A DNA stretch of 64,000 nt from Alphaproteobacteria bacterium (GCA_013288565.1 JABDBP010000005.1:8746-72745), one strand, 5' to 3'; numbered from the stretch's first letter, positions 47,444 through 64,000 are shown. Notes: a model not told the origin generated them from the letters alone. Program-made: numbers and translations.

Positions 47444-47510
47444 GATGTTAATAATGAGTAATTGGTGATTATAGCCTGATTTATAATGATTATCCTTTCT
47501 TTACTTACAG

Positions 47511-48178: not shown

Positions 48179-48768
48179 CAGGCCAAATTCCCAATCAAAA
48201 TCCACGTATTAGTCGCGGTTTGTTTCAGCGTTCCACCCGCATATTGCCCAGCCAAGTGGGTTTTCGTATTATACGAATTGATGGTGACGCCGCTGCCAGG
48301 GGAAATCCCCACCTGCCCAGCGCCAAGCTGGGCTATGTCGATTTCCGCACCAGTCGGGAAATTCACGCTAGAATTAGGCGGAACGGTCAGTGTTATCGCA
48401 CTTGCATTATTAAGCGTAACCAGATTCCCGGAATCACCTGCCGCCAGGGTATAACTCGTTCCCGTCTGTGCGTTAATCGGCCTATAGCCCTGAATTTGCA
48501 TCGGCGTCGTAGCACCCTGCGTCACACCGTCGATGTTGCCGCCGATGATAGCCACGCTACTTGCGCTTTGCGTTGCGATTGAACCCAACCCAAGGTTTGT
48601 CCGCGCACTGCTAGCACTCGAAACATCCGATAAATTATTAGATGCCAGCAGATTCGTCACCCATTTCACGCCGAGTGGTTTCGTATTGTCTGCCGCTAAG
48701 GATTGGCCACTAGCCGCACCTTGCAGGCTGAACCATGTCCTGAGTTTTGGCCCGATTTCCCCGAACAT
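48178..48768 (-). CDS. phage tail-fibre-like protein
   Basis: 196 aa. NLSDVSSASSARTNLGLGSIATQSASSVAIIGGNIDG resembles a common fibre N-terminal motif. Confidence 0.55.
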   Translation of the reverse strand: MFGEIGPKLRTWFSLQGAASGQSLAADNTKPLGVKWVTNLLASNNLSDVSSASSARTNLGLGSIATQSASSVAIIGGNIDGVTQGATTPMQIQGYRPINAQTGTSYTLAAGDSGNLVTLNNASAITLTVPPNSSVNFPTGAEIDIAQLGAGQVGISPGSGVTINSYNTKTHLAGQYAGGTLKQTATNTWILIGNLA

Positions 48769-49188
48769 CTAGAAATCCCCGCCAATTGCATTAATGCTTA
48801 TCAGCTTCGCCGAGGTAACTGTTGTGAGCGCCGTGCAGGTGAGAGTAGCGCCGTTTTTCAAATACAGGTATTTATTCCCGTTGGCATCATAGGCAAGGCC
48901 AGGCACTTGAGGGTTCCTTAAAATATCCACTGACGGAAGGGCATTAGTATTCCCGGAATTTGCGGGAATGTTCACCGTGCCAAGCAAATAATTTGTGCTG
49001 CTGATCGTTATAAAAAAAGAAATGTCGCGTGCTGACGTATCGCTCGAAGCGACAACCAGTGTTTCGATTTTTGATCCATTAGCACCGGCTGTGGCTATGG
49101 TTTTACTATTTGATGCATCGGCATTTGCGATCTGCACAACATAATTCTGTATGGTTTGCGGAAAGATAGGCGTTGCGGTGACAGTCAT
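48769..49188 (-). CDS. hypothetical phage structural protein
   Basis: 139 aa, Thr/Ser/Asn-rich and beta-rich. Tightly packed between the DUF2793 and fibre-like genes. Confidence 0.4.
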   Translation of the reverse strand: MTVTATPIFPQTIQNYVVQIANADASNSKTIATAGANGSKIETLVVASSDTSARDISFFITISSTNYLLGTVNIPANSGNTNALPSVDILRNPQVPGLAYDANGNKYLYLKNGATLTCTALTTVTSAKLISINAIGGDF

Positions 49189-49190
49189 GG

Positions 49191-49865
49191 TTAAACTCCT
49201 CCAAACATGGTGTGATAAACAAGATTGATAGTTGGTAAATCGGCAACGGTTAATGCGCGAAATGTGGGTGCGGCGGCGCTGCCTGAAGCAGGCCCAGCAT
49301 AAACCGTATTGGCGTTTTCATTTGCCTTGGTGATGGTCAGGGTGCCCGAGCCGGTAATCGGCGAGCCGGAAACGCTGAATTCCGTCGGCATGGAAATAGC
49401 GACGCTGGTGACGGTGCCGCTGCCACCACCGGTCGCATCATGCCATTTTCCAGTGCCGGAATTATAAGTAAGCACGCTGTTGCTCGCGATCGAGCCACTC
49501 AAACTCACATCCCCCAGCACCGAAAGCGAAGAATTAGTAACGAACCAGTTCGTGCCGTTATAGGCGTAAATCTTGCCCTGATCTTTCACGAACAGGCTCA
49601 TTCCCGCATTCGGCACGATGAACTGCCATATCTGGTTATACCAGGCGATGTTATTCGCCTGCCCCGCCCATGCGCCAGTGGGACTCGCCGCCACTATATA
49701 TAAGTCACCGGGATTGGGAGATGATGGCGGCGTAGCAATGGTTATGCTTTTCGCCCCAGTATTCATTAGTGCATCTATCGTCGTCAATGCTTCATTGACA
49801 GTAATTTCTTTTTGTGCTTGATTCTGCTGGAGTAGGAAAAAACCTAGGTTATTTGAAGTGGTCAT
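49191..49865 (-). CDS. DUF2793-domain protein (GTA/phage-associated)
   Basis: 224 aa. N-terminal QNQAQKEITVNEALTTIDAL, PGDLYIV, and WYNQIWQFIVPNAGMSLFVKD, as recalled for DUF2793. Confidence 0.6.
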   Translation of the reverse strand: MTTSNNLGFFLLQQNQAQKEITVNEALTTIDALMNTGAKSITIATPPSSPNPGDLYIVAASPTGAWAGQANNIAWYNQIWQFIVPNAGMSLFVKDQGKIYAYNGTNWFVTNSSLSVLGDVSLSGSIASNSVLTYNSGTGKWHDATGGGSGTVTSVAISMPTEFSVSGSPITGSGTLTITKANENANTVYAGPASGSAAAPTFRALTVADLPTINLVYHTMFGGV

Positions 49866-49900
49866 ATTTTTTAACTCTTAATTTCAACTCTAAAGGAGCG

Positions 49901-50377
49901 ATGGTTATGAAAAAAGTTTCAGCAGTTGTTATTGTCACCAGTTTGGCATTGGTTTCCGGGCTTTGCCTGGCGGCATTCGATTCATCTGCGGCTAATAACG
50001 CGAAAAGGGAAGCTTGCGAAAGCAAACTTTCCGCCAAGGCACAAGACGAACTTAAAAAACGCCGCGCGGCTTTCGCCAGCCTTACCGCGGCAGAAAAGAA
50101 CGACGTAAAGGCCGCTCGTGCTGATAGCAGGGCTCAGTATTACAAGCTCTCCCTCCCGGCCCAGGCGATCTTAAAAGCGCAAAACCAAGGCAAAACGCCT
50201 AACGAATCGAATAAGGACGCGCTGAAGGAAGCCGCCTCCTACCAAACCTGGGAGAAGGAAAGGATTGGCAAACTTTCGGATAAAGAACAGACCGCCGCTA
50301 CTCCACTTTCTGCAGCTACCAAGCAGGAATTGATGACCAAATGCGGCTCAAGGAACCGCAATAGCAGCCAGTCCTAA
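49901..50377 (+). CDS. secreted helical hypothetical protein encoded opposite to the phage-like genes
   Basis: AAGGAG RBS. Signal peptide MVMKKVSAVVIVTSLALVSGLCLAAF. Lys/Ala/Glu-rich mature part. The 3' end overlaps the g15-like stop by 4 nt. Confidence 0.55.
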   Translation: MVMKKVSAVVIVTSLALVSGLCLAAFDSSAANNAKREACESKLSAKAQDELKKRRAAFASLTAAEKNDVKAARADSRAQYYKLSLPAQAILKAQNQGKTPNESNKDALKEAASYQTWEKERIGKLSDKEQTAATPLSAATKQELMTKCGSRNRNSSQS

Positions 50378-53300
50378 ATATTGGCACTCCCCGGCCAGCC
50401 GCGCCCAACGATTGCGGAAAGCTGGTAGACATTAACCGAAACGCTGCTTTGTAGACTGCCGAAATCGGTTGTCTGTAGGGTAGCGCTGTAATAGGCCGAA
50501 GGCGAGGTGATCCCGGAAATTGTCCTGACCACGTTGGTTCTATTCATAATATCCACGCTGTAGGCTTCTGTTTCCTCCGAAAGCGGAACATCTGAATAAT
50601 CCAGCCATGCGCCGCCAACCCGCGTCCTTCTTATCCAGTTCATCGTGAGATTCCCAGAACCGTCCCGCAATCCACTGATATTCACCGGTGAATAAGGTTT
50701 TAAACATAGTGCCTGATAGGTGAAATCCTGCTCGGTGACATCGCTCAAATCCTGCCCGAAAGTGCCGCCTTTGTATTGGCGCAAAACATTTATCAGCGCC
50801 GTTGGATAAGCCGTGGAAACTATGCTGTTATCAAGCAGCGTGAAATTTTCCCCCGCGGCATGGCTTGAAATCTGCCCTTCCGTCCCCAGCCGCCCGCGCA
50901 AAAGCGTACTCAGCATATATTTATTGGGCGCAACCAAAGTCGCATTCTGGAACTGGATTATTTCATTCCCGAGGAGTGCGGTGTTCGCACCATTCAGTAG
51001 CGAAAGCCGGTCGGTACTTGCCAATTCGCCGGAAACTAATATTACCGTAACCGTATTTATTATATCGAAAACACAATAATTTGCCGGCGCCGCGAGAACC
51101 GTCGAAGCCTGGCCTGTCGTCCCGGCAACGCTTATAGTGGCAATTGGCGAATATGAATTCCCGCCATCGTCAGAACGGAAAACCTTCGCTCCCGACCATC
51201 CGGTCTGCAACCCCGCACCGGAAAACCGCAGATACGGCTGGTTCCATGCATCACCGGGATATGCAGAAATATCCAGAATACCCAAATCGGTGGCTGCAAT
51301 GGCAGGAATCGCCGCCGTAGTAGGAGCAGCGACAACCGGGGTACTGTGAATATTATAAATCGAAATATTTTCCGCCACGCCCGTAACTTTGGTCACACCC
51401 GCCTTGGAATAATGCGCGTCGGTAATACGGATCGTATGCACCGCACCGTTATCTGCCGTGATCGTTATCACATCTGCTGGATCGAGATAACTATATTGCT
51501 GCGGCAAATAAAACTGATAGCTGGTCCGCCCCATCCAGTAACTGTAAAGCGTAGTATCAGCGATATTTTTTGCTTCCTGATCGGTCAGCACTATCGGCAG
51601 ATTGACGGTTAGCTTCGCCACACTTTCAGTGGTGATTTTTTCCGAATGCTGGTTGCATGGCTGATAATCGATGGCGTAGCTTAAATAATTCACGTCCACT
51701 TTCTGTGGCAGCGCAACTTCCATGTCGCGCTTGATCGCAAGCGGCATATCGGATTTATCGGTTCTGGCCAGGCTATCCTCCGCGATAGTCAGCGCCGAAG
51801 CATTACCGCGCGGGATAAATTTCAATATCCCGTCGGTTTCCACTGCATCGAAAAAATACGCCGCTTGCAAAGTTTCGATCGCGCCGCGGAAAGTTCCCTG
51901 CGAAACTATCGTGTACCCATCAACTTCCTGGGTGAGTCGGCTCACATCGAAATCGGTTTCTTGCATTCCGGCGCGCAGGCAAATATCGGCAACGATGGCA
52001 CCGAGATCGGAAATCCCGAGTTTCCCCTCCACCCAATGTCCATATTGCCACAGCGGACCGTCAGTCCACACATTCACCAGATTTGGCCAATAAGGAAACG
52101 GTCGGGCATCCCAAGTCCAGACGAATTTCTGCTGGATCATTGATGAACCAGCCCATTGCAATTCTGTGCCGATAAGGCCGATGCGCTGCGCCATGAAATC
52201 TATATGTCCCTGCGAAAAATATGGCAACCCGCCCTGTACTGAATTCGGATCATAAAAAATATTCGGCTGATTGGTCGCGCAATCGACGCTCGGGAACCCG
52301 TATTCGGTGAACCAGATCGGTTTGGAATTTGGCACCCAGGAAGTTATCGTGCTATCAGGGTTCACATGGTGATTACTCCACCACCAAGCAATGTTTTTCC
52401 AAGCGTAAGGCGCGGAAAGCGAAGCCTGGATGGTGCGTGGCGTGTCGGTATAATAAAAGCTCCATCCCTCCCCGCTCGTCCAGCCATTGATGACTTCCTG
52501 AACATTATAATCCTCCACCGTTTTTGCCGTCAGCGGGAAATATGCGTCAATTCCTACCACGTCGATATTCGATGATGCCCACAGCGGATCAAGGTTATAC
52601 CAGCCTCCGGTTGTATGATGATATTCACTCCAATCGGCAGCGTATGTAACCTTCACGCTTGAACCTAAAATTCCCTTCACCGTTGCTGCGAGCGATACCA
52701 GTGCATCCACCGCCGGATAATCGGTTCCAGTTCCCGCCACGCTAGTCAGCCCGATCAATTCAGAGCCGATGACGAACGCATCGACGTATCCGTTTACCAG
52801 ATTCGCATAGTGCTCAACGAAGGTGTTGTATCCGTTGGTTTTCGTGAAAAAATTCGCAACGTCGGTGGCACTTCCTGTCACTTTTCCGCGCCAGGGCTTT
52901 CCGGTCACGTCCATGAAAAACATCGGGTAGAACATGATTTTATAACCGCTATTTCTGAGTTGCGTCAGATAGCGTAAAACCCCGGCATCATTCGGTGTTC
53001 CGCCATAAATCGGATCACCGTTGGAATCTAGCGTAATCTGGTGCGCGGTTGAGCGCATGAAGCTTCCAACGCTCCATATATCCGGCTCGGTCGTAGCACC
53101 GGTTTGATATTCCACTCCCGGAACAATCGTGCAGCTTCCGGCATTGGTGGAATTCCCGAACCACGTCACCACCAGCGCCACCCACTCAACATTCGGCAAT
53201 GTCTGCTGCAACTGCGAAAGCGCCACCAACGAATCCGCCACGCCGCTGCCGTTATTCCGGTTTATCGGCACCGAGGTTCCACTCTGCGCGAATCCGCTGC

Positions 53301-54051
53301 CGACCGTTTCGCCCTCGACTTTGGTTTCGACGACTGTGTCGTACACAAATTCACCGGAGCCGGGGATCATCACGATACCGCTGATGATTTCTTCCAGCGA
53401 TTGCCCGCTGCCGTTATCCACGGGCTTCGCGCGCTTCTTCACCTCAAAAGTGAAATTCGGGATGCGGTTGCCAAACGCCGCCAACGGGAAATTCTCGACA
53501 AAAACATAAGCGAGCCCCCGATATGCTGGCGTCGTCCCCACGCCTTGCACGCTCTGGATATAAGTATCCGGCTCCTGCGTTTCGCTGCCGGTATAAACGC
53601 GGTACGTTCCCTGGCTGGTATCGAGTAGCAGCGCATCCGCCCAAATGCGGATCACTTCGTCGATTTGCCCTAAGCAAATCCCGATAGCCATAGTGACGGA
53701 ATAGCTGTAGGTGGTTTCGCTGTTCGATTGCACCAGCCCGCCGCCCTTGCCGCCGCCGATGGAAGTCGTCGTCGCGGTCTGATGAATCTGCTCTGCCCAG
53801 ATCACGTTCCCCGCCACGCGCATATTGCCGTAAACGATGGGAATCATTTTCCCGTAAGTCGAAGTCTGCACCGAAAGATCGGCGAGCTGTAAGCCCTGGC
53901 GCGACGCGGGAAGGATTTTATTATCGATGGCGTTGCCGACGTAAGTTGCGCCGATGCGCAAGGCGGAATTCAGGAACGGCCCGAAAATCCCGCCGCTGCC
54001 AATATCACCCGCCACCGCGCCAGCCGCTGCGGTTAAAATTAAAGTTGCCAT
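50374..54051 (-). CDS. RcGTA g15-like large tail/host-specificity protein
   Basis: 1225 aa. N-terminus MATLILTAAAGAV...QTSTYGKMIPIVYGNMRVAGNVIWA and a central TIM-barrel-like region (WFTEYGFPS), as recalled for GTA g15 homologues. Confidence 0.8.
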   Translation of the reverse strand: MATLILTAAAGAVAGDIGSGGIFGPFLNSALRIGATYVGNAIDNKILPASRQGLQLADLSVQTSTYGKMIPIVYGNMRVAGNVIWAEQIHQTATTTSIGGGKGGGLVQSNSETTYSYSVTMAIGICLGQIDEVIRIWADALLLDTSQGTYRVYTGSETQEPDTYIQSVQGVGTTPAYRGLAYVFVENFPLAAFGNRIPNFTFEVKKRAKPVDNGSGQSLEEIISGIVMIPGSGEFVYDTVVETKVEGETVGSGFAQSGTSVPINRNNGSGVADSLVALSQLQQTLPNVEWVALVVTWFGNSTNAGSCTIVPGVEYQTGATTEPDIWSVGSFMRSTAHQITLDSNGDPIYGGTPNDAGVLRYLTQLRNSGYKIMFYPMFFMDVTGKPWRGKVTGSATDVANFFTKTNGYNTFVEHYANLVNGYVDAFVIGSELIGLTSVAGTGTDYPAVDALVSLAATVKGILGSSVKVTYAADWSEYHHTTGGWYNLDPLWASSNIDVVGIDAYFPLTAKTVEDYNVQEVINGWTSGEGWSFYYTDTPRTIQASLSAPYAWKNIAWWWSNHHVNPDSTITSWVPNSKPIWFTEYGFPSVDCATNQPNIFYDPNSVQGGLPYFSQGHIDFMAQRIGLIGTELQWAGSSMIQQKFVWTWDARPFPYWPNLVNVWTDGPLWQYGHWVEGKLGISDLGAIVADICLRAGMQETDFDVSRLTQEVDGYTIVSQGTFRGAIETLQAAYFFDAVETDGILKFIPRGNASALTIAEDSLARTDKSDMPLAIKRDMEVALPQKVDVNYLSYAIDYQPCNQHSEKITTESVAKLTVNLPIVLTDQEAKNIADTTLYSYWMGRTSYQFYLPQQYSYLDPADVITITADNGAVHTIRITDAHYSKAGVTKVTGVAENISIYNIHSTPVVAAPTTAAIPAIAATDLGILDISAYPGDAWNQPYLRFSGAGLQTGWSGAKVFRSDDGGNSYSPIATISVAGTTGQASTVLAAPANYCVFDIINTVTVILVSGELASTDRLSLLNGANTALLGNEIIQFQNATLVAPNKYMLSTLLRGRLGTEGQISSHAAGENFTLLDNSIVSTAYPTALINVLRQYKGGTFGQDLSDVTEQDFTYQALCLKPYSPVNISGLRDGSGNLTMNWIRRTRVGGAWLDYSDVPLSEETEAYSVDIMNRTNVVRTISGITSPSAYYSATLQTTDFGSLQSSVSVNVYQLSAIVGRGWPGSANI

Positions 54052-54062
54052 AAATCTATTTT

Positions 54063-54086
54063 GTCATTCCGGCGAAAGCCGGAATC
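54063..54086. repeat. REP-type palindromic element overlapping the 3' end of the g14-like gene
   Basis: gtcattccggcgaaagccggaatc. On the minus strand it encodes the last codons (..SGFRLSPE) and the TGA stop of the NlpC/P60 gene. Confidence 0.75.
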
Positions 54087-54552
54087 CAGAATCAAAAAAA
54101 CTATAAACTCCGACGATTTTTTCCCGCCAATAATCATCCAGCCGGTGTTCTACCACCTGCCCAACCTGGCGGAAGCAATGGATTAATCCAAACCCACCGG
54201 GATAATCACTGATGATACCGAGATGCTGCGGATTGCGCCCGAATTTCAGCAGCAGAACATCGGCCATATCCATATTTTTCGCATCGACCGGATAGAGCAG
54301 ATTTTCTAATCTCTCCTGCAATTTTTTCCCGTTCGGAATGCGCGTATATGCGGTATCGTCGAACTGCGAAAGGAACGCACGGGATTTATTCTTGGGTGAG
54401 TGCATTTGCAAATCCCTGGCAACACCGACCAGTAGGCCCAAACAATCGCACCCGCCATGATTTGCCGCGGATTTTTTCAGGCGTCCCTGATGATGGAATT
54501 TCGTCCCGATCCAACTTCTTGCCTCGGTGATAATTTGTTCGCGTGTGGTCAT
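54064..54552 (-). CDS. NlpC/P60 family cell-wall peptidase (RcGTA g14-like)
   Basis: Start at MTTREQII (the earlier MTIAK codons come from the REP element). Motif GGCDCLGLLVGV with the catalytic Cys, and LGIISDYPG..LIHC with the His. Confidence 0.8.
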   Translation of the reverse strand: MTTREQIITEARSWIGTKFHHQGRLKKSAANHGGCDCLGLLVGVARDLQMHSPKNKSRAFLSQFDDTAYTRIPNGKKLQERLENLLYPVDAKNMDMADVLLLKFGRNPQHLGIISDYPGGFGLIHCFRQVGQVVEHRLDDYWREKIVGVYSFFDSGFRLSPE

Positions 54553-54562
54553 TTTTGCTATT

Positions 54563-54634
54563 GTCATTCCCGCGCAGGCGGGAATCTATATTCAAGAATT
54601 CGTGGTTATGGATCCCCGCTTTCGCGGGGACGAC
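54563..54634. repeat. pair of REP-type palindromic elements in inverted orientation between the g13- and g14-like genes
   Basis: gtcattcccgcgcaggcgggaatc (54563-54586) and gatccccgctttcgcggggacgac (54611-34). Confidence 0.75.
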
Positions 54635-54635
54635 A

Positions 54636-55484
54636 CTAAGTGGAGCGTGTCCCAGAAGTAGTGAGAACCGCATCTGTCCCGGGAATAAATGGCTCGCCGC
54701 GGAAATTCACGGCGTTGTTGAACCGCGTGCAGCAAGTGGTGAAAGTCTTGTCGCAACCCGCCTTCATGCTGTAAGTATCGCCGATCGAAATGGTATAATA
54801 TGCGGGCAACGCCAGCGTGATTTGCGTGCCGGCAAAATTCATCACATCCATGCTGCGCCCGCTGTTCAACCCGCTGGTGAAGGTAATAACCCCGGCACTG
54901 AAATATCCGCTTGCCTCGGTGCGCGACGAATCGGAAAACACGCTGTTGCTGACAACTGCCGTCACCGTCCCGGTTTTGCTGAAAGGCGTCATATTTATCG
55001 TGCAATTCGCATCGCCAAGTTGTGCACGGCAAGCGCCAGAATATAACGCTCCCATAGTGCCAGAGAGTCGCTGGGTAAGGCCGCGCACCTCGGCGGTGAA
55101 TTGGTTTTTGTTGAACGAAACTTCGCCAATGAAACCGCGTTTCAGGTTCATCTGGCCTTGCGTCAACTCGCTGTAATTTACGATAAAAACTTCCATTTCC
55201 GCGTAATCATAACGCCCGGAAAGTATATCATCCTCCTTGATGACCACTGAATCTATGATCCCTTCCACGTCCAGATTATCTACCGAAAGATCGGAGTTGG
55301 ACGCAATGGCAGTCGGAGAAAATCCAGTCGCAGCTAGGTACGTCACACCGCTGTAAATAATATTTTGGTCATGGTCAGTGAAACCCAAAACCGTGGAATC
55401 AGTGAGCGTCAACTTCCAGCAAGTCGCAATGGTGGTAACATCCCCGGCGATGTGCGCCTGGAGTGCGGTGCTTATGGTTTTCAT
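54636..55484 (-). CDS. DUF2163 / BR0599-family protein (RcGTA g13-like tail hub)
   Basis: 282 aa. TALQAHIAGDVTTIATCWKLTLTDSTVLGFTDHD and a C-terminal CDKTFTTCCTRFNN Cys cluster. Confidence 0.8.
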   Translation of the reverse strand: MKTISTALQAHIAGDVTTIATCWKLTLTDSTVLGFTDHDQNIIYSGVTYLAATGFSPTAIASNSDLSVDNLDVEGIIDSVVIKEDDILSGRYDYAEMEVFIVNYSELTQGQMNLKRGFIGEVSFNKNQFTAEVRGLTQRLSGTMGALYSGACRAQLGDANCTINMTPFSKTGTVTAVVSNSVFSDSSRTEASGYFSAGVITFTSGLNSGRSMDVMNFAGTQITLALPAYYTISIGDTYSMKAGCDKTFTTCCTRFNNAVNFRGEPFIPGTDAVLTTSGTRST

Positions 55485-55494
55485 ATTGACAAGA

Positions 55495-56094
55495 TTAGAT
55501 TTTTATTTCCACAATCGGAATATTCAGCCAAGAATTGCTACCGTAGGAATCAAGCGTGGCCGCTAGCTTGTCGGTATCGAATCTGACCGGTACATCGAAC
55601 TGGAAATCCGCAGTTATCGCCACGCCGGAACCGGGCGCGGTGGAAAAAGTCACTGACCCCGTCGTAGTATCGTAAGAAACGCCGGAATTCTGCACCACGC
55701 TATTTAAATAAACCACCACCGTTCCCGCCACCGGCTTTTTCACATTCCGGTTTTCGCTGATCCCGCCATTGACATAAGTTTTCACCAATTGGAAAATTTT
55801 CGTCGTCCCGTTCCCGGTACCGATATTTTGCCCGATGATTGAATAATCCGTCCAGTCCTTGAATCGAAAACCGTAGGCGCGGCCTTTGCGCGCGCGGAAA
55901 AATGCAATCAGCGCATTCAACTGTGTCTGCGTCTTCACGCCATGCGCTACATTGTATTTCGCTCGCGCTTCTGCCCAGTTGACGTTGCGCTGCTCATAGC
56001 CGCTGTTCAGCTCAACCACATCGGTTGAATATTCCGGCCCACCGGTTGAACCATAGGAGATGTCGGCGGGAAATTGCACTTCCACGAATGACAT
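55495..56094 (-). CDS. DUF2460-family protein (RcGTA g12-like distal tail protein)
   Basis: 199 aa. MSFVEVQFPADISYGSTGGPEYSTDVVELNSGYEQRN matches the recalled family N-terminus. Confidence 0.8.
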   Translation of the reverse strand: MSFVEVQFPADISYGSTGGPEYSTDVVELNSGYEQRNVNWAEARAKYNVAHGVKTQTQLNALIAFFRARKGRAYGFRFKDWTDYSIIGQNIGTGNGTTKIFQLVKTYVNGGISENRNVKKPVAGTVVVYLNSVVQNSGVSYDTTTGSVTFSTAPGSGVAITADFQFDVPVRFDTDKLAATLDSYGSNSWLNIPIVEIKI

Positions 56095-56123
56095 AGGATA
56101 AAATTTTTCTTGAGAGTTAAGAA

Positions 56124-56582
56124 TTAATGGGAGGGAGTGAAATCATCATCGCCGGGAAATTGCTCCACCTGCTCCGTGTGCGATTTATGATGCTTATGCT
56201 TTTCCGTATGCGGTTTGTGGTGCTCATGGTGATGCTCTGTCTTCGCATGGTGTTCATGATGATGGTGATGTTGATGCCCGTGTCCGTGATGAGAATGCGC
56301 CGCCGCGGGACCTTTACCGTGCAAGTGGTGTAGATTTAAAAACCTGCCGTCGGTCAGATGCCGTTGCAGCGTTTCGTTCACCCTTGGGCCTGCATCCTCC
56401 CCCATATCGGCCAAAGCTTCTAATATCAGGTTCAGCTTATTCAAGTATTTATCGATTTTCCTGGCGAATTCTTTTTCGTGCGGTAAATGCTCTCCCCCCC
56501 GCTTATTTTTTTTGCGGCGTTTTTGGAACCTTTGGATCTGGGGCAGGAGCAACCACTTTGGGTGCAGCCAGTCTATGAGCAT
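56124..56582 (-). CDS. histidine-rich hypothetical protein at the position expected for the tail chaperone and tape-measure genes
   Basis: 152 aa. AGGGGAG RBS 8 nt upstream of the ATG. Basic/helical N-terminal half. C-terminal HSHHGHGHQHHHHHEHHAKTEHHHEHHKPHTEKHKHHKSH tract. Confidence 0.6.
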   Translation of the reverse strand: MLIDWLHPKWLLLPQIQRFQKRRKKNKRGGEHLPHEKEFARKIDKYLNKLNLILEALADMGEDAGPRVNETLQRHLTDGRFLNLHHLHGKGPAAAHSHHGHGHQHHHHHEHHAKTEHHHEHHKPHTEKHKHHKSHTEQVEQFPGDDDFTPSH

Positions 56583-56666
56583 AATTTTTTACTCCCCTAG
56601 CTAATAATACCACAAAATTCCAAACCCTTTGTAACACTTTTATTAAGATTTTTATCAGAACCATGT

Positions 56667-57077
56667 TTACCCCCTTGTGTATGTGATATTTCCAGCGCTT
56701 TGCAACGTGATCGAATAGATTTCCGCATCACCGTATTCCCCTGATTTTTTAAAGGAATTCACGGCAAAACTGCCGAGTAACGTGTCTCCATTGCCGAAAG
56801 TGAGCCGATAATCGTTGATGCCAGCGTTGAAGGCATTTTCCCTTAAATTTTCCTCCGCCGCCGAATTGGTGAAAATCCCGGAAGCGTCAATGGAAAGCGA
56901 CTGTATCCCGCCGGAAATCGCCCTTTGCCACTGGCCGGATTCTAGGTTGTTGCTGACCAGTATTTTATTGTTCAGCTTGAATTCGGTGGTTTTTAAGCCT
57001 CCGACGGTGGTGAAATTCTCTGGGCTTGCGCCGTCGCCAATCTGGAGCAGAAATAATGTACCGCTTTGCGCAGCCAT
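56667..57077 (-). CDS. phage major tail protein, TP901-1 family (RcGTA g9-like)
   Basis: 136 aa. GTLFLLQIGDGASPENFTTVGGLKTTEF....SGIF. Confidence 0.8.
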   Translation of the reverse strand: MAAQSGTLFLLQIGDGASPENFTTVGGLKTTEFKLNNKILVSNNLESGQWQRAISGGIQSLSIDASGIFTNSAAEENLRENAFNAGINDYRLTFGNGDTLLGSFAVNSFKKSGEYGDAEIYSITLQSAGNITYTRG

Positions 57078-57078
57078 A

Positions 57079-57483
57079 TCAACCCTCCTCCGTCAGCGCT
57101 TTGAACTTCACGGCTGCCTCATAGGTCACGCCATCAGCCATACGTTTTATCTCTATGTTTTGAAAAGTGAGATTAGTTATGGTGTGCCCGGTCATGATGA
57201 TGGTCGCCCCGCGCAGCGTATCGGTCGCCCGCGAGATTATTCCGAGCAGAGCCGTGTCCTGCATATCGCGTGAATAGGCTTTCAAAGTTAGGCTGCACGA
57301 CGCTCCATTGCTGGTTTTGGTCGACCAATCGGCAGCAGTTATTTCGTTCACCACCAGATACGGAAACCCCGTCCCTTGCGGTACATATTCATAAATCCCC
57401 GTCACCATTGCGGTCAAAGTGGAATCGGCGCTAAGTACCCCGTAAACCGCCTTTTGCAATTGGAAAATTACGTCTGAACTCAT
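57079..57483 (-). CDS. DUF3168 tail-completion protein (RcGTA g8-like)
   Basis: 134 aa. LQKAVYGVLSADSTLTAMVTGIYEYVPQGTGFPYLV. Confidence 0.75.
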   Translation of the reverse strand: MSSDVIFQLQKAVYGVLSADSTLTAMVTGIYEYVPQGTGFPYLVVNEITAADWSTKTSNGASCSLTLKAYSRDMQDTALLGIISRATDTLRGATIIMTGHTITNLTFQNIEIKRMADGVTYEAAVKFKALTEEG

Positions 57484-57815
57484 GTGTCCATTTTCTCCCC
57501 TAATATCTCCAGCATTTCGTTTTTCAGGCCGCTGTTGATTATCGAACGGATGTTGTAGTAATCGCCGGAAAACGAAATCCGCATAGTGGGAGTCACGCCG
57601 TCCAGGTAGCGAATGGTGAAAGTTGCATACTGCACCTCCTCCATGTGGTCAGAATCGAATATTTCCCTGCCGGTTGCTGGCACCACTTCCGCCCAGACAG
57701 TCGCGAACGTATTCCAACTGGTGGTGAATCCACCAGCCCCGTTCGCGGTCATTGTCGGCGACTCAATAGTAATCTGCCGGTTCATGCGCGAGGCGAGATT
57801 TAAAATTCCGCTCAT
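57480..57815 (-). CDS. head-tail adaptor / head-closure protein (RcGTA g7-like, SPP1 gp16 family)
   Basis: 111 aa. MNRQITIE...WNTFATVWAEVVPATGRE...TFTIRY. Confidence 0.75.
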   Translation of the reverse strand: MSGILNLASRMNRQITIESPTMTANGAGGFTTSWNTFATVWAEVVPATGREIFDSDHMEEVQYATFTIRYLDGVTPTMRISFSGDYYNIRSIINSGLKNEMLEILGEKMDT

Positions 57816-58357
57816 ATCCTCATCACCTTATATTGGTCGTAAAGCGCGGTGATTGGGTCTTTCAGTGAAACACTCATTGAGCGGTTCTCATACATGTCAG
57901 CGATATGTGAAAGCATTCCGGTCAGAAGCGGCTGCGGCACGTTGGTTTCCGCGGCTCCATATCCTGCCTGGTAGGTGACTTGGATTTCGTGCCCAAGCGG
58001 TATCGCATCGAATACAACCACATCGCCCAGCGCACTCACATAATAGCTGGTAAAACTTTGCACACTGCTATCCCGGTGCACGATGTTCACCGAAGTCACC
58101 GATTGCACCGGCCCGCGGGGCAGGAAAACTTTCCTTGGGACGAAATGATCGTAGGAAAGCATCCAGGTCTGGGTAATGAATGAGCGCTTGGTGTAACTCT
58201 CAGCGATTTCCCTCGCCGCCGTGATCAGCCCGGTAATCAGGCTATCCTCGCTGGTAGTGCTCACGCGCAAATAGAGTTTGGTTTCGCTTAAGCTCAACGG
58301 CTCTATAGAGGGCGGCGTCACTAAAGTCAGCCCAGGTATGTGGTCATAATCAGGCAT
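57812..58357 (-). CDS. head-tail connector protein (gp6-like, RcGTA g6-like)
   Basis: Start at MPDYD. LSLSETKLYLRVSTTSEDSLITGLITAAREIAESYTKRSFITQTW. Confidence 0.75.
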   Translation of the reverse strand: MPDYDHIPGLTLVTPPSIEPLSLSETKLYLRVSTTSEDSLITGLITAAREIAESYTKRSFITQTWMLSYDHFVPRKVFLPRGPVQSVTSVNIVHRDSSVQSFTSYYVSALGDVVVFDAIPLGHEIQVTYQAGYGAAETNVPQPLLTGMLSHIADMYENRSMSVSLKDPITALYDQYKVMRI

Positions 58358-58359
58358 GA

Positions 58360-58554
58360 TTATTCCTTTATGTTTTTCTTGATAGGAACGGCACAACCGG
58401 CAGCGAAAAATGCCAGTGCCAAATAGTCGCGCACTTCGTATTTCTCGCCTGCCGTATATTGCTTGACGATACGCCCATCCTCAGTTCCCCTGCGGGTTTC
58501 CAGCATTTTTATCAGCATAATGAGTTGTGAGTGCAGAGTGAATCTACTCGGCAT
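58360..58554 (-). CDS. small hypothetical protein (extra gene between the capsid and connector genes)
   Basis: Up to 64 aa; internal starts at 58518 and 58506 are possible. Stop lies 2 nt before the g6-like start. No family recognised. Confidence 0.35.
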   Translation of the reverse strand: MPSRFTLHSQLIMLIKMLETRRGTEDGRIVKQYTAGEKYEVRDYLALAFFAAGCAVPIKKNIKE

Positions 58555-58577
58555 TCACAACCCAGCACTCAGCATTA

Positions 58578-58994
58578 TTAATAAATAACCGGCTTGTAAG
58601 CCGCACTGCCTCTGAGCGAGGTGATACCGATGATGGTACCGTTGGTCATGGTACCGGTCTTGGTGGCTACAGCCTTCACGTAACGCTGCGAGCCGATATA
58701 GCCAAGCTTGTAGCTTGCTGAGTCCTGGCCGAGCGCCACGGTCACGCTGCTTACGCCCGCACTCATATCGCTGGTTGCCACGGCGGTATAGGTACCACCG
58801 CTGGTCGCGCATTCAGTGAGGCTGAGCGTCCAGTAGACGCTGCTGGAAAGAGTATCGCCCGAAGCGCCCATATTGAACAGCACGATAGCAGAATTGAATC
58901 CCTGCAAATCGATTGCCGAAGAAGTGACGGTTGCAGTCGCAACCGCCGGTGTGGTAACCTGCGTTACCGAAACGTTATCATATAAATCGCGCAT
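58578..58994 (-). CDS. hypothetical phage structural protein (extra gene after the capsid gene, possibly head decoration)
   Basis: 138 aa, Thr/Ser/Ala/Val/Gly-rich and beta-rich. Not part of the canonical RcGTA order. Confidence 0.5.
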   Translation of the reverse strand: MRDLYDNVSVTQVTTPAVATATVTSSAIDLQGFNSAIVLFNMGASGDTLSSSVYWTLSLTECATSGGTYTAVATSDMSAGVSSVTVALGQDSASYKLGYIGSQRYVKAVATKTGTMTNGTIIGITSLRGSAAYKPVIY

Positions 58995-59023
58995 AATTTT
59001 TTCCTTTTATTATTAAATAAAAT

Positions 59024-59150
59024 GAGAGCGGTTTCAGATTGCTTTATGCTAGGAGCGCAAGTCCGAGCGAGCTGAGTGTACACTCAGCGTACATGAGCAT
59101 CGCGAGAGGCGAAGCGCGACGACGCAGAAAGCAAAAATGAAACCGCTCTT
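59024..59150 (-). promoter_or_regulatory. imperfect palindrome of about 127 bp (long stem-loop) immediately downstream of the major capsid gene
   Basis: Outer arms gagagcggtttcagattgctttatgc / gcagaaagcaaaaatgaaaccgctctt. Central perfect palindrome gctgagtgtacactcagc. Confidence 0.5.
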
Positions 59151-59153
59151 GGA

Positions 59154-60347
59154 TTAAGACAGCAGCAACAGCTTGATCGCCTCGAAATTGACGACGTCGC
59201 CGCCGGTTCTTTTCGTGGTATAGAAATTCACGAACGGTTTTTCCGTGAACGGATCGCGCAATATGCGGATGCCGATGCGATCAACAATCTGATACGCCTT
59301 GGAAAAATCGCCAAACACCACGGAAAGGCTTGCCGCCGTAGGCGAAGGCATGTCAGCCGCCAGTTTTACCGGCACGCCTAGCAGCGTATCGGGAGTTCCC
59401 GCCGCCAGGCCGGGTTGCCACATATATTGGTTGGTGGTAGTTTCCTTGAGAAGCCGCACCGCCTGGGTGGTAGCACGATTCATCAGGAAAGTCGCATTCA
59501 CCGTATATGGTTCTTTGAGGGTGTAATAAAGGGTGATTAGCGAGTCGGAAGTGATGACGCCGGAAGAACCGGTTCCGACTTGCTGGATTTGCCCCCAGTT
59601 CGTGCCACTTGCATAAGTCAAGATTCCGCGCGGCTGGCTGACGCCAGTACCGCTGACGAATGCAGTATTTTCCTTGCGCGAGAAATTATCGGCAAGTTTT
59701 CCCGCCAGCCATTTTTCGATGTCGATGCTGGAATCGTCGATCAATTTCTGCGTCGCTTTCGGCTGGGCATACAACTCATAGACCGGGATGTTTTTCTTAC
59801 CGATTTGCGGCGTCGCCGTATCAGCTACCGTCGTGGTTTCACCAGTCCAGCCAGAGGCTATATCGTTGATATCCTCAATGATGTCCAGCGAATCGCTCGA
59901 TATGGTTTCGACCGAGCAAATCTGGCGCATCGGCGAGGTTTCGAATATCGCCTGCACGATATTGCTAGATATTGTAGGTGTTACCAAATAGCCGCCGTCC
60001 GGGTCGCTGCCGACTGAAAGCGCCTTGGTTTCGAGTCGGGAAAGCCCGGATTCCGTGCCTTTACGCAAGTAATTACAGAAAGCGGTTTTATGTTCAGCAG
60101 CCAGGCCATCGTCGGCGAGGCCGTATTCTAGGGTTTTTGCCGGGCGGCGCATCGCCGTTTCCACTTTTGCGAGCCGGGATTTATGATTATCCAGAGCGTC
60201 GTTGATTTTATTAAGTTGCTCCAGCGTCAGCGGATCGGCTGCACCTTTGCGTTTGATTTCATCGAGCTTTCGCTCGTTGACGGATTTAAATTCCTCCCAG
60301 GCATGGCCTAGGGCATTCACCTTTACGGCAATTTCCGGATTTTGCAT
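59154..60347 (-). CDS. HK97-family major capsid protein (RcGTA g5-like)
   Basis: 397 aa. N-terminal coiled delta-like region and the GGYLVP-type motif (DPDGGYLVTPT). Confidence 0.85.
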   Translation of the reverse strand: MQNPEIAVKVNALGHAWEEFKSVNERKLDEIKRKGAADPLTLEQLNKINDALDNHKSRLAKVETAMRRPAKTLEYGLADDGLAAEHKTAFCNYLRKGTESGLSRLETKALSVGSDPDGGYLVTPTISSNIVQAIFETSPMRQICSVETISSDSLDIIEDINDIASGWTGETTTVADTATPQIGKKNIPVYELYAQPKATQKLIDDSSIDIEKWLAGKLADNFSRKENTAFVSGTGVSQPRGILTYASGTNWGQIQQVGTGSSGVITSDSLITLYYTLKEPYTVNATFLMNRATTQAVRLLKETTTNQYMWQPGLAAGTPDTLLGVPVKLAADMPSPTAASLSVVFGDFSKAYQIVDRIGIRILRDPFTEKPFVNFYTTKRTGGDVVNFEAIKLLLLS

Positions 60348-60361
60348 ATTTTTCCTTTTGG

Positions 60362-61015
60362 TTAATTGGTTAGTATTGATATGGCCCTGTCCAAAACGGC
60401 AGAAAGCTCATATATTTCCTCTTCCTCTCCAGCATCCCGCTGATCGGAAAAGCTTTCAAAACCGCGCACGGCGATCAATTTTGCCGCCTTACGCGAATAT
60501 CCTGCTTCCCGCAGGAAATCTTCGAATTCTCTGATCGTTGCTGGCGCGGATTTCAAACGGTTCACCACCGCATGCGGATTGGCCGGGAACGTCACCAGAC
60601 TTACTTCCCACAGTTCCACCTGCTTTAAAAGCCGCACTCCCGTCTTGTAATCAGTTTCGTAATCGACCGGCGTATAGCCAATGGAAAGGCCGTTTATCGC
60701 CCCGGATTTCAGCAACGCATAAGCCTCGCGCGCCCTTTGCACATCAAGCAGTAACCGGCCTTCCATATATAGCCCGAATTCATCCTCACGCATCTTGCTG
60801 ATAACGCCGATCGGCTCGTCCGGCTGGTGCTGCCATAGCAATTTTATCCCATTACCATTTCCTGCGATGGTTTTTTTAAACGCGCCTTTTAAAACTACAT
60901 CTTTCTGGCTGTCGATATTTCCGAAGACGCTGGCGTAACCGGCAAACGCGCCGTCATCAGCTATTGATTTCAGTTCAAGCGGGAAATCTAAATGTTTGGT
61001 TTCAAGTTTTTGCAT
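60362..61015 (-). CDS. HK97-family prohead protease (RcGTA g4-like)
   Basis: 217 aa. GYASVFGNIDSQKDVVLKGAF, LWQHQ, LSIGY. Confidence 0.85.
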   Translation of the reverse strand: MQKLETKHLDFPLELKSIADDGAFAGYASVFGNIDSQKDVVLKGAFKKTIAGNGNGIKLLWQHQPDEPIGVISKMREDEFGLYMEGRLLLDVQRAREAYALLKSGAINGLSIGYTPVDYETDYKTGVRLLKQVELWEVSLVTFPANPHAVVNRLKSAPATIREFEDFLREAGYSRKAAKLIAVRGFESFSDQRDAGEEEEIYELSAVLDRAISILTN

Positions 61016-61017
61016 GA

Positions 61018-62310
61018 TTATTTCTTTGTTGGGTTGGTATCCAAAATATCGCCGCCATTAATCGGGCTTAAACCAACTGACGCGCGTTTTTCGTTGATCG
61101 TCATAAAATTCACGCCCTGCAATTTCGACCATAATCCCTCGCGGCGCGGTGCCATCGCACTGATGTTATCGATGTCGATATCCAGGCAGAGATTCTCGCC
61201 GAACAGTGGCAGAAGCCAGCCGTTCAGGGCATTCGCCAGGCTTTGCAGCATCGGGATCACCGTCTGCTCCCATAGCGAAAGTTTTGCCTCGGCCATGTTG
61301 TTATAAGTTGAGTCGCCCGGAATCCCAAGCAGTTGCGGCGGTACACCGAATGCCAGCGCAATATCCCGCGCCGACGAATATTTGATGTTCAGAAAATCCA
61401 TGTCGCGCGGCTTCAGGCTCATTTCCTTCCAATCCAACCCGCCCTCAAGCAGCAGTGGACGCCCGGCATTTCTCGCGCTGGAATATTGATCGTCGATCTG
61501 CCCCTTCAGCCGGGTGAATTGCTCATCGCTTAAAGTCACCGCCTGGTTGTTGGCGTTTCTCACCACCAGCGCACCGCTAGGGCGTGCACCATTTTGCAAT
61601 AGCGACTGGTTCCATACCGCCGCCTGATTATGCTGATCAATGCTGTAAGCCGCCGCTTCCATTGGCGACAATCCATACCAATCATTCAGTGGATGGAAAT
61701 GTTTCAGGTGCAGTATCTCTGATTGCCCGGTCAGCCGATCCACTGGAAAATCTTTATAAATACCGTCATCGCCGACGGCATATCTATAAGCCTGCGGCAG
61801 GTAATTATTTCCTGCAATTAACGTCACGCGATCGGGCCGGAGCAGATATAATTCCGAAGGAGCACCCTCGCCGTCAATTCTTTGTATGTATGTGTTGCCG
61901 CTAATCATGCGGTAAATGAACAGGCTTTCGATGAATTCGTTACCGCCCATGCCAGGATTCGGCTTATCCAGCAAATCCAATACCGGATGCGCAGCTATTT
62001 GTTTCCTCGTACCGCCATCCGCCTGATATAATAACCAGGGAACGCTTGCCGCGCTTTGCGCCACCAGAGAAATCGAGCGGAACGCAATGACGTTACGGCT
62101 ATAACCCTCGTCGGAGAATTTCCAGTAATTCCTTGGTGTCCATACCGGCTCACCCGGCGCAGTGATATATGATTGGTAAGCGCTGGAAAGCAGGAATTCC
62201 GGTATCAAACCGAATTTCTTTCCCGCCAGCTTTCTCACTTTATCTTTCGCCCTGACGAAAATAGAGAATGGATTTCTCTTTCCGCTTTTTGAGTTAAGCA
62301 GATAATTCAT
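61018..62310 (-). CDS. HK97-family portal protein (RcGTA g3-like)
   Basis: 430 aa. Portal-like body with LLQNGARPSGAL and FGVPPQLLG segments. Confidence 0.85.
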   Translation of the reverse strand: MNYLLNSKSGKRNPFSIFVRAKDKVRKLAGKKFGLIPEFLLSSAYQSYITAPGEPVWTPRNYWKFSDEGYSRNVIAFRSISLVAQSAASVPWLLYQADGGTRKQIAAHPVLDLLDKPNPGMGGNEFIESLFIYRMISGNTYIQRIDGEGAPSELYLLRPDRVTLIAGNNYLPQAYRYAVGDDGIYKDFPVDRLTGQSEILHLKHFHPLNDWYGLSPMEAAAYSIDQHNQAAVWNQSLLQNGARPSGALVVRNANNQAVTLSDEQFTRLKGQIDDQYSSARNAGRPLLLEGGLDWKEMSLKPRDMDFLNIKYSSARDIALAFGVPPQLLGIPGDSTYNNMAEAKLSLWEQTVIPMLQSLANALNGWLLPLFGENLCLDIDIDNISAMAPRREGLWSKLQGVNFMTINEKRASVGLSPINGGDILDTNPTKK

Positions 62311-62429
62311 GCTCTGTCCTTGGATTAATTTTAGAAGGAGGAAGTAGTTTCAGGCGTTAATTTCGTAGCCTATATTTATCTTCTACTTGCGCTTTGAAAA
62401 ACGCGGAAGGGGAAATTTCTAAAAATTTT

Positions 62430-62756
62430 TCAGTGCATCTTTTCCATTACCCGAACGCCCAGCATTTCCAGTTGTTTCCGGGCGGAATCGGTGAGGCAGA
62501 TGGTGTGGATGTGCCAATCGCCGAAACTGCTTTCCTGGATGGAGTAATCTTCCGAATCGCTGAAATCGAGCCGGACGAATTCTTTTTCTAGGCGGACTAT
62601 GTTATCGACTTTTAGATCGGAATAATAGAAAGCAAATTTTTTTTGCAGATGATATTTTTTCCTGGTTTCATGATTGAAATACAGCCAGGAAACGTGCAGG
62701 CTGTTTATCGCCCGCGCCGATTCCGCCAATTCCGGTTGCTCGTATTGTTCCAGCAT
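62430..62756 (-). CDS. hypothetical protein inserted between the terminase and portal genes
   Basis: 108 aa, flanked by non-coding spacers of about 110-120 bp. A TATAAT hexamer lies in the upstream spacer. No family recognised. Confidence 0.45.
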   Translation of the reverse strand: MLEQYEQPELAESARAINSLHVSWLYFNHETRKKYHLQKKFAFYYSDLKVDNIVRLEKEFVRLDFSDSEDYSIQESSFGDWHIHTICLTDSARKQLEMLGVRVMEKMH

Positions 62757-62864
62757 TACGATCCGCTCCAGGTTAATGCTTCATTATAGTCCAAAATGGT
62801 TAACAAAAGGTTAATATCGGGATAAAAAATCATAAAAATTCAGGCATTTCGCCTCAATTTTTAT

Positions 62865-64000
62865 TCAAATGCTCCTTATCCGTGCCTGTCCTGGGGTTCG
62901 ACCAGTGATCCATTCCAGAAACTGACTGGTTGAATCCATCTGATCGTCATATTTCGTGCCAGGAAACCCGAAGATTTCCCTTTCATATTCAGCAAGCCAG
63001 ATGGCTTGCCGAGGCAAAAACACCTTTCCCGCCTCGATTAAACAACTGATTTTCGCCGCTCTTTCAATCTTACTAAGCGATGATTTGATAGCGATCACCG
63101 GCAGATTTTTTTTCTTCCGCAACTCCTGGATTAACGATTGCCCATTCGCCTGATCCTCAATCAAAATAGCCGCAGGCTTCCATTTTTCCGCCAGACCTAT
63201 CATCTCCTTTTTTAGCAACGGATATTCTAGTCGCGCGCGAAAAATATCCAGAAGATTATATCCTTCCACAGTTTCATTCCATATCGCACATACGGAAAAA
63301 TCGTTGTTTTCGCCGGTTTTTATCGCCGTATCCCAGCTTTGGAAAATCGTTCCGCTGGGCTTAGCGTCATATCGCCGGATCCATTCCGGATTTATCATAT
63401 TTCCACCAGCTGCTAGTGGATTCTGCTGATATTGCGCTGCAAACCCGCCCGAGCCCAAATCTTTTTTTGCCTTCTCAATTTCCTCGATATTTTCCCTTTC
63501 TGCCTGGAGCAATTCGCCTCGCTTCCTACCCATCCGCAATTTTCCGCGAGCATAAGTTTTCTTCTCTTCAGCGATTGCCGGAATCGCCAGGATTTCCCAG
63601 CCTTTTTCCGCCAGATGCCCACTCAAATCCTCCTCGTGCAACCGCTGCATCACCAGAACGAATACGCCTTTCTTCTTGTTATCGAGCCGCGTCGAAAAGG
63701 TTTTGTCAAACCATTCGATTACATTCCGACGCTTGGCGGCGCTGTTGATGTGGACCGGGTTGTGCGGATCGTCGATAATCAGAAAATTCCCGCCCTCGCC
63801 GGTAATTGAACCACCAACCGAGGTCGCGATTCTGTACCCGCGCTTTGTCGTCATAAATTTCGCTTTCTGGTTTTGCCCGCTGGCGATTTGAAACTCCGGA
63901 AAAACTTTTTTATACCAATCGGAAGTCACCACCCGGCGACAATCAAGCGAATGCTTATTGCTTAAACTTTGCGCGTAGCTGGCTGCAATTACCCGTCGCG
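62865..64000 (-). CDS. phage terminase large subunit (RcGTA g2-like), 5' end outside window
   Basis: The frame stays open from the listed GTG (63932) to the window edge (..IAASYAQSLSNKHSLDCRRVVTSDWYKK). Also GGNFLIIDDPH and a nuclease domain. Confidence 0.85.
   Translation of the reverse strand, partial: RRVIAASYAQSLSNKHSLDCRRVVTSDWYKKVFPEFQIASGQNQKAKFMTTKRGYRIATSVGGSITGEGGNFLIIDDPHNPVHINSAAKRRNVIEWFDKTFSTRLDNKKKGVFVLVMQRLHEEDLSGHLAEKGWEILAIPAIAEEKKTYARGKLRMGRKRGELLQAERENIEEIEKAKKDLGSGGFAAQYQQNPLAAGGNMINPEWIRRYDAKPSGTIFQSWDTAIKTGENNDFSVCAIWNETVEGYNLLDIFRARLEYPLLKKEMIGLAEKWKPAAILIEDQANGQSLIQELRKKKNLPVIAIKSSLSKIERAAKISCLIEAGKVFLPRQAIWLAEYEREIFGFPGTKYDDQMDSTSQFLEWITGRTPGQARIRSI

Follow-up and report, generated by a model that had tools for sequence, protein, structure and literature searches.

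All long non-contractile tails, and all agents of the RcGTA type, are to our knowledge considered to rely on a tape measure and frameshifted chaperones. The locus described here, from an Alphaproteobacteria bacterium (GCA_013288565.1, JABDBP010000005.1), raises the question of what stands in the place of these genes when the space between the tail tube gene g9 and the distal tail gene g12 is too small to look familiar and is largely taken up by a short, extremely His-rich ORF. The whole stretch of DNA that was analysed, 64,000 nucleotides long, is called the window below.

The RcGTA-type cluster and the space between g9 and g12

Matches to Pfam and PHROGs showed a head-tail-lysis cluster of the RcGTA type on the minus strand of the window, in the order terminase, portal, protease, capsid, adaptor, head completion, tail terminator, g9, the slot under study, g12 to g15, fibre-like genes, holin and lysozyme. 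For comparison we used L124, the metagenomic JGI scaffold Ga0206851_1069, which was found through its g9 homologue (P0004) at 85% identity and which shares the synteny from g8 to the lysozyme. The main features of the cluster are as follows.

47003..63932 (-): RcGTA-type head-tail-lysis cluster
62865-63932 (-): large terminase, cut by the end of the window
57079-57483 (-): tail terminator (Pfam)
56667..57077 (-): g9, tail tube protein (PF06199 Phage_tail_2, E 8.6e-27; 85% identical to L124, dN/dS 0.125)
55495..56094 (-): g12, distal tail protein (PF09343 DUF2460, E 9.5e-78; 90.5% identical to L124, dN/dS 0.08)
47003-47443 (-): phage lysozyme, end of the cluster

The assignment to the RcGTA type made in the initial annotation was confirmed, with g9, g12, g13, g14 and g15 all present and their GTA-specific domains standing in canonical order: g13 carries PF09931 and PF09356, g14 is an NlpC/P60-like peptidase by Pfam, and g15, of 1225 aa, carries GTA_TIM, Phage-tail_3 and Rcc01698_C (PF13547, PF13550 and PF23666). 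The match of the holin to the GTA-type family PF11351 was weak (19.7 bits, under its cutoff). The rest of the window is ordinary chromosomal DNA, with genes for polysaccharide synthesis, threonine synthase, peroxiredoxin and others.

From the g9 stop to the g12 start there are 572 bp, and the window is contiguous there; the gap and its His-rich ORF, first noticed in the initial annotation, were exact in their coordinates, and both bounding genes were identified by Pfam. The space contains an ORF of 152 aa at 56124-56582 (-), co-oriented with g9 and g12 and in an arrangement equivalent to that of L124, and g12 starts 29 nt downstream of its stop with no terminator found in between. The space had been described as holding one ORF, which is correct for the 152-aa ORF but missed an additional ORF of 53 aa at 56503-56664. 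The 152-aa ORF encodes 30 His (19.7%, versus 1.7% in the 26 other genes of the window), 23 of them among its last 59 residues, and a composition scan of the window's genes found no second tract of this kind. When the region was shuffled 5000 times with its dinucleotide content preserved, an ORF of at least 152 aa on the minus strand arose in 0.34% of the cases (p about 0.003). The His codons are mixed (17 CAT and 13 CAC), so the tract is no simple repeat at the DNA level, and searches for tandem and for dispersed repeats likewise showed that it is not a DNA microsatellite. The codon-usage score of the ORF was weakly positive and below that of the neighbouring genes, a score which is uninformative for the His tract and for the region of overlap with the 53-aa ORF.

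Organization of the His-rich protein

Four parts can be distinguished in the protein, namely a basic segment (KRRKKNKRGG), a short coiled coil with a second helix, a His-rich disordered tract and an acidic tail. Downstream of its N-terminal residues, which are treated below together with the start codon, the segments are located as follows.

56310..56507 (-): helical domain, residues 26-91 (N26-G91, NKRGGEHLP...HLHGKG), 63/66 identical to L124, helices by AlphaFold2
56187..56309 (-): His-rich predicted disordered tract, about 38% His, with 11 HxH motifs over residues 92-152, pLDDT below 50
56124..56186 (-): acidic C-terminal tail KSHTEQVEQFPGDDDFTPSH and stop codon, 86% identical over 21 residues to L124

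The sequence of basic N-terminal segment, His tract and acidic tail that had been read from the ORF was thus found again, with the tail kept in L124. In the helical domain, the residues F39, I43, Y46, L50, I53, L57 and M60 form three clean heptads, as read from the sequence. The single-sequence AlphaFold2 model placed helices at residues 8-29, 35-60, 64-77 and 81-86, the last three of them at pLDDT 64-78, and predicted disorder from residue 84 onward. This agrees with a helical N-terminal half and a disordered C-terminal half, as far as a model of low confidence with a mean pLDDT of 56 can indicate. Nowhere else in the cluster are the window and L124 as well conserved as over the coiled coil and second helix. 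The His tract spans about 40-55 residues in the two homologues, with about 37% His, and metal binding by it is plausible from its composition.

Extreme His content together with Glu, Lys and Gly and with predicted disorder is also found in Hpn, the C-terminal tails of SlyD and UreE, the N terminus of HypB, and ZrgA. The protein studied here has no homology to any of these, and it differs from them in being encoded in a tail operon and in having its His tract fused to a conserved coiled-coil domain.

Searches for homologues and for the missing tail genes

Neither the 152-aa nor the 53-aa ORF gave a meaningful match in Pfam, PHROGs or NCBIfam. The only family signal for the His-rich ORF was to ZrgA (zinc uptake), at 17.8 bits against a cutoff of 185, and was compositional; a sequence search of the PDB returned only unrelated helical proteins, at E 0.001 or above. 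Only the protein itself was returned when 5.8 billion proteins were searched by word index and when 1.84 billion representatives were scanned exhaustively by HMMER with residues 1-100; the protein search with the 53-aa ORF gave no match, and no relative was found in viral contigs (by DNA pattern and by protein) or in 50,697 phage genomes. Alignment by hhalign to the families that occupy the slot in relatives (tape measure, g10, g10.1, F170, F190, F330, F600a/b) was negative, with a probability of 0.1% for the relatives' tape-measure profile, and the C-terminal motif of the canonical tape measures (YLVGExGPELF) does not occur in the protein.

The missing genes were sought in the DNA as well. 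Profiles of the tape measure, g10 and g10.1, the latter two built from 7 and 3 relatives, respectively, gave only E values above 0.3 against the six frames of the 64-kb window and of L124, and above 5 in the six-frame hmmsearch with the tape-measure profile. No chaperone signal of PF11836 or PF09550 was found in the slot, and tblastn of the relatives' slot proteins against the window found no remnants of g10 or g11. The ORF had been said to show no chaperone or tape-measure features, and the family, PDB and profile-profile searches all agree with this; likewise, the Pfam, PHROGs, tblastn and six-frame results support the claim that g10, g10.1 and g11 are missing from the slot. The profile search that had been proposed as a way to overturn this reading found no match to g11 or to tape-measure families.

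A 15-nt repeat links the C terminus of the His-rich protein (VEQFPGDD) to the N terminus of g12 (VEVQFPADI) and was considered as a duplication scar. L124 has YVPGDD at this place, and the resemblance was put down to chance.

A homologous gene under purifying selection in L124

The gene order in L124 is g8, g9, slot, g12, g13, g14, g15, an antisense gene for a secreted protein, fibre, holin, lysozyme and a pilin-like gene. Its slot measures 616 bp, which is a minimum since a scaffold gap of ten N (1128-1137) lies inside it, and encodes a homologue of the His-rich protein that had been left uncalled, with an antisense ORF of 100 aa called in its place. The His-rich protein seemed a singleton among 15 billion proteins because this homologue was missed by gene calling, and the practical lesson is that a real gene can disappear from protein collections when an antisense ORF is called instead.

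The comparison of the two sequences showed strong constraint in the His frame. In the helical domain 63 of the 66 residues are identical (95%), with pS 0.65, pN 0.022 and a dN/dS of 0.03, whereas either of the other frames gives a value above 2. Taken as a whole, the protein encoded past the A run shares 84% of its residues with L124, at a dN/dS of 0.14. The His tracts are distinguished by three indels (3, 30 and 12 nt) that each preserve the frame, the tract of L124 being 13 residues longer; the His content is about 36-38% in both homologues, with 11 HxH motifs in the window and 9 in L124, and the acidic tail is kept (KSHTEQVE..PGDDDFTPS). Between window and L124, dN/dS was 0.13 for g8, 0.125 for g9, 0.08 for g12, 0.16 for g13, 0.19 for g14, 0.10 for g15, 0.05 for the holin and 0.25 for the lysozyme, at a pS of 0.52-0.72 in the neighbouring genes, which means saturated synonymous divergence.

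Because low dN/dS is found in the His frame only, the indels are in frame and the neighbouring genes are constrained, these results show that the His-rich gene is a real protein-coding gene under strong purifying selection and that the tail module is not decaying but is under purifying selection in both lineages. A defective tail module, one of the possibilities raised at first, is contradicted by the same architecture in L124 and by dN/dS values of 0.14 for the His-rich protein (0.03 for its domain) and 0.05-0.25 for g8 to g15, holin and lysozyme. The view that loss of g10 to g11 left a meaningless ORF and a dead tail module is extremely improbable: the ORF is an orphan in 15 billion proteins, its codon-usage score is weaker than its neighbours' and the A8 junction resembles a frameshift, but its dN/dS of 0.03-0.14 in the correct frame only, its in-frame indels and the intact, selected tail genes of two lineages at a pS of about 0.6 speak against a pseudogene.

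The non-canonical slot is common to the window and L124, and the replacement is therefore older than their split. It is firmly established that a conserved orphan gene has taken the place of the chaperone/tape-measure module, and that the GTA-type cluster around it remains under selection. Two diverged genomes thus keep an otherwise complete tail module in which neither a tape measure nor chaperones can be recognised, with an orphan of unusual composition, equally constrained, in their place.

Gene content between g9 and g12 in relatives

The canonical layout was read from g9-anchored loci in metagenome and viral collections. After g9 come a g10 of about 115 aa and, in the -1 frame relative to it, a g10.1 of about 46-50 aa; a short tape measure of 167-185 aa then precedes g12. 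The distance from g9 to g12 was 1224-1542 bp in six canonical loci, so that the 572 bp of the window are less than half the canonical size, and this comparison of syntenic clusters bears out the early remark that the slot is unusually short. The canonical tape measures (L084-L108, L050) stand directly before g12 and all carry the C-terminal motif GGPV...YLVGExGPELFxP; in L050, g10 was identified by Pfam (PF11836) and the 185-aa tape measure by PHROG matches down to 2.4e-9. The tape measure of RcGTA itself (g11, Rcc01694) has 216 aa, is trimeric, and fills the tube lumen with an N-terminal helix of 113 residues (PMC7296036), and g11 to g15 are normally consecutive in RcGTA-type clusters (PMC11409702).

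A survey of the slot in 80 loci anchored on g12 showed that this part of the cluster varies widely. With the tape-measure profile from relatives, a tape measure was recognisable in 40 of the 80 loci. In 26 (L001-L030, L034, L046, L072) there is a slot of about 7 kb with large ORFs, Ala/Gly-rich and with hydrophobic or membrane-like segments, of about 600 aa twice and about 330 aa; these families (F600 and F330) have no Pfam or PHROG match. Three loci (L017, L024, L039) carry tandem paralogues of a family of roughly 170 aa, and in L017 these copies are all that lies between g9 and g12 (1387 bp), with no recognisable tape measure. Among these 'Rickettsiales-like' alphaproteobacterial MAGs the slot shows unusual plasticity. 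The window and L124 have the most compact g9-g12 slot among the loci found, and the His-rich protein bears no resemblance to the other slot occupants of relatives.

Homologues of g9 at 53% identity (L125-L128) were found in unrelated contexts, alone beside a TonB-dependent receptor or unknown genes, so that some related genomes have their GTA tail genes scattered.

Translation start and the A8 run

The 5' end of the His-rich gene allows two readings, which depend on the following features.

56503..56664 (-): 53-aa ORF (frame A), starting 3 nt past the g9 stop with the Shine-Dalgarno sequence AAGGGGG; 62% identical over 45 residues to L124/L081
56506..56513 (-): A8 run, which ends the 53-aa ORF as CAA AAA AAA TAA, read from the sequence
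56508..56582 (-): annotated N terminus of the 152-aa ORF (MLIDWLHPKW...KRRKK), a candidate coding segment; Shine-Dalgarno sequence GGGGAG and ATG kept in L124

The 53-aa ORF has a hydrophobic N terminus and a Pro/Lys-rich tail and shares 80 nt with the 152-aa ORF; it may be where the His-rich gene really begins. A +1 or -2 shift at the A8 run, or the loss of one A, would join it to the His frame to give a protein of 179 aa, while a -1 slip would give a mere extension by 21 residues. As judged from the sequence, eight A's just suffice for the perfect re-pairing of two Lys-tRNAs after a -2 slip. The A8 run is followed by a G7 run at 56494-56500.

Frame A is open in L124/L081 up to the scaffold gap, and the His frame read from the L124 equivalent of the ATG at 56582 closes after 21 codons. 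No conserved start codon was found between window and L124 downstream of the poorly conserved linker (52-62% identity). The closed frame and the lack of a conserved downstream start favour a start at 56664 with a change of frame at the A8 run. The good Shine-Dalgarno sequence noticed earlier at the ATG at 56582 is indeed kept in L124, but with the frame closing there this ATG may not be the true start.

The pattern of substitutions points the other way. The region 56560-56664, the first 105 nt past g9, is 88% identical to L124, and frame A has a pS of 0.15 (about 0.6 in the flanking genes) with a dN/dS of about 0.8, which is unlike purifying selection and argues against a start at 56664. These values suggest a region constrained at the nucleotide level, which might hold embedded start signals or another cis element. 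The Shine-Dalgarno sequence and ATG of the His frame are almost invariant, and the eight codons that follow contain two substitutions, both synonymous in that frame, which points to a start at 56582. Neither an Rfam scan nor folding of the RNA, applied to the spacer and to the stretch following the A run, revealed any element or stimulatory structure (z about 0).

The N10 gap of L124 (1128-1137) coincides exactly with the A8 run of the window, which may reflect heterogeneity of the run length in the population or a weakness of the assembly. NCBI, JGI and Logan all record the 152-aa product in identical form, which argues against a one-off assembly error in the window. Translation starts either at the ATG at 56582, or at the ATG at 56664 with a +1/-2 shift at the A8 run.

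Possible functions of the His-rich protein

The explanation that we tentatively prefer is a non-homologous inner-tail protein in the tape-measure position, which would oligomerise as a coiled coil and bind metal through its His tail. A single lineage-specific gene would have replaced g10, g10.1 and g11 before the window and L124 split. The order of genes in tail modules is conserved even where their sequence diverges; because of this, and because the tail genes are still maintained, we infer that the protein most likely performs the function normally served from the tape-measure position. As an oligomer joined by its coiled coil, it would occupy the lumen of the g9 tube, where it would plug the channel and set the length. 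The HxH motifs of the His tract might bind a divalent metal, perhaps stapling the oligomer, by analogy with phage fibres; alternatively, the tract could act as a pH-sensitive release element through protonation of its His residues.

With RcGTA g11 and the 167-185-aa tape measures the His-rich gene shares its place between the tube gene and g12, co-oriented and tightly packed, and the protein resembles RcGTA-like tape measures in its small size and in an N-terminal part that is predicted to be helical and is likely oligomeric. It differs from them in having no sequence or profile similarity, no C-terminal motif, a shorter helical part, a disordered tract with about 37% His and no accompanying g10/g10.1 chaperones. 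At 152 aa, or 179 aa if fused, it reaches 70-100% of the length of GTA-type tape measures (167-216 aa). The description as a radically shortened tape-measure analogue was therefore overstated, given canonical lengths of 167-185 aa and 216 aa in RcGTA, and it is mainly the chaperone pair that is missing. Several points count against a tape-measure role. The predicted helices cover about 50-80 residues in comparison to 113 in RcGTA. Tape measures normally need a chaperone, and none is recognisable in the window. A His-rich disordered tail is not known from the literature for any tape measure. The helical domain is, in addition, more conserved than the tube protein, which is unusual for a tape measure.

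Two further systems may be compared in respect of metal binding and channel plugging. HxH motifs bind iron in trimeric phage fibres such as the T4 gp37 tip, according to the statement in PMC11705849 that cites the T4 gp37 structure. The many HxH motifs beside an oligomerisation element recall such fibres, by analogy only: in the fibres the motifs are spaced in a folded, beta-structured needle, while in the His-rich protein they crowd in a low-complexity tract at positions not conserved between the homologues. The RcGTA tape measure was reported to resemble the P22 gp26 tail needle (PMC7296036), a coiled-coil plug of the tail channel, to which the His-rich protein has no detectable similarity, its coiled coil being much shorter.

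If the protein is an inner-tail protein, the role of the tape measure would be open to takeover by an unrelated metal-binding protein, and the locus would offer a small, tractable system in which to find the minimal features of a tail-lumen protein.

A somewhat unlikely alternative is that the gene encodes an accessory His-rich protein that binds or buffers a metal (Ni, Zn, Co or Cu) and is carried as cargo in the tail operon, with the tape measure and chaperones elsewhere. Its composition resembles that of His-rich metal-binding proteins, as reflected in the ZrgA match of 17.8 bits, although this score is far under the cutoff of 185. GTA genes are scattered in related lineages, as in the case of the solitary g9 of L125 next to a TonB receptor, the 7-kb insertions part g9 from g12 in 26 of the 80 loci and make the slot a hot spot for unrelated genes, and an antisense cargo gene is likewise kept within the cluster. 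The tight packing in the operon, with 29 nt before g12 and no terminator, and the usual consecutive order of g11 to g15 (PMC11409702) speak against this alternative, as does the lack of a tape measure anywhere in the 64 kb. A tape measure encoded elsewhere in the genome is possible because the DNA past the terminase gene lies outside the window; it would mean that the most conserved block of the GTA cluster has been broken up, with a conserved cargo gene in its place.

Distinctly unlikely, in our judgement, is a chaperone-like pair of the G/GT type, in which the 53-aa ORF and the His frame would be linked by programmed slippage at the A8 run and would serve in assembly and stay out of the particle. 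Like the chaperones of the lambda gpG/gpGT type (g10/g10.1, PF11836/PF09550), the two ORFs stand directly past the tube gene and overlap in different frames at a slippery homopolymer, whose eight A's are exactly enough for two Lys-tRNAs to re-pair after a -2 slip. The canonical relatives have g10.1 in the -1 frame of g10, and a -2 shift would have a precedent, since such a frameshift in a tail chaperone was reportedly described for phage Mu by Xu et al. in 2004. In L124 the 53-aa frame is open to the gap and the ATG ORF of the His frame is closed, which also fits a recoded pair. However, the shift needed is +1/-2 and not the usual -1, the upstream 'G' part of 53 aa is far below known chaperone lengths, and the N-terminal part is basic and not acidic. 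Neither a family match (PF11836 or PF09550) nor a stimulatory RNA structure (z about 0) was found, no tape measure is left to be chaperoned, and the A run is hidden in L124 by the N10 gap.

An elaboration of the inner-tail explanation is bolder, and we consider it improbable. It would be a GTA lineage without tape measure or chaperones, in which an unrelated mini-protein, made by programmed +1/-2 recoding or by phase-variable slippage at the A8 run, builds or plugs the tail, its His tail being stapled into a rod by metal or released by protonation. If true, this would be a new solution to the determination of tail length and the gating of the channel in siphovirus-like particles, and the first metal-dependent inner-tail protein.

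Other features of the cluster and its surroundings

The stretch of the window from about 10000 to 35000 has a low GC content (0.38-0.42, in comparison to about 0.49 elsewhere) and contains genes for a Wzy-like ligase, MBOAT, carbamoyltransferase, Wzz/tyrosine-kinase and asparagine synthase, and probably represents an O-antigen or capsule island. For an ORF of 138 aa at 58578-58994 (-), which lies between the genes for capsid and head-tail adaptor, no family match was obtained; it is conserved at full length in the metagenome contig L082 (Ga0206835_1624). At positions 1-360 of this contig a g9 fragment is joined to g8 in inverted orientation; the contig, which runs in the wrong direction and was uninformative, probably arose as an assembly chimera.

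Between g15 and the tail-fibre genes, an antisense gene at 49814-50377 (+) encodes a secreted-looking protein with a counterpart in L124 (7282-7752, -); the two proteins, of 156-187 aa, are 61% identical, and their family match is a weak, Spy-like one. REP-like palindromic elements lie within the GTA cluster at 54560-54630, between g13 and g14, and at 54060-54098, at the 3' end of g14. Their core, GCGGGAATGAC, occurs in 7 copies in the window at no more than one mismatch, in comparison to 1.3 expected, and the last nine residues of g14 in the window (DSGFRLSPE), which do not occur in the L124 homologue, derive from a REP-like element.
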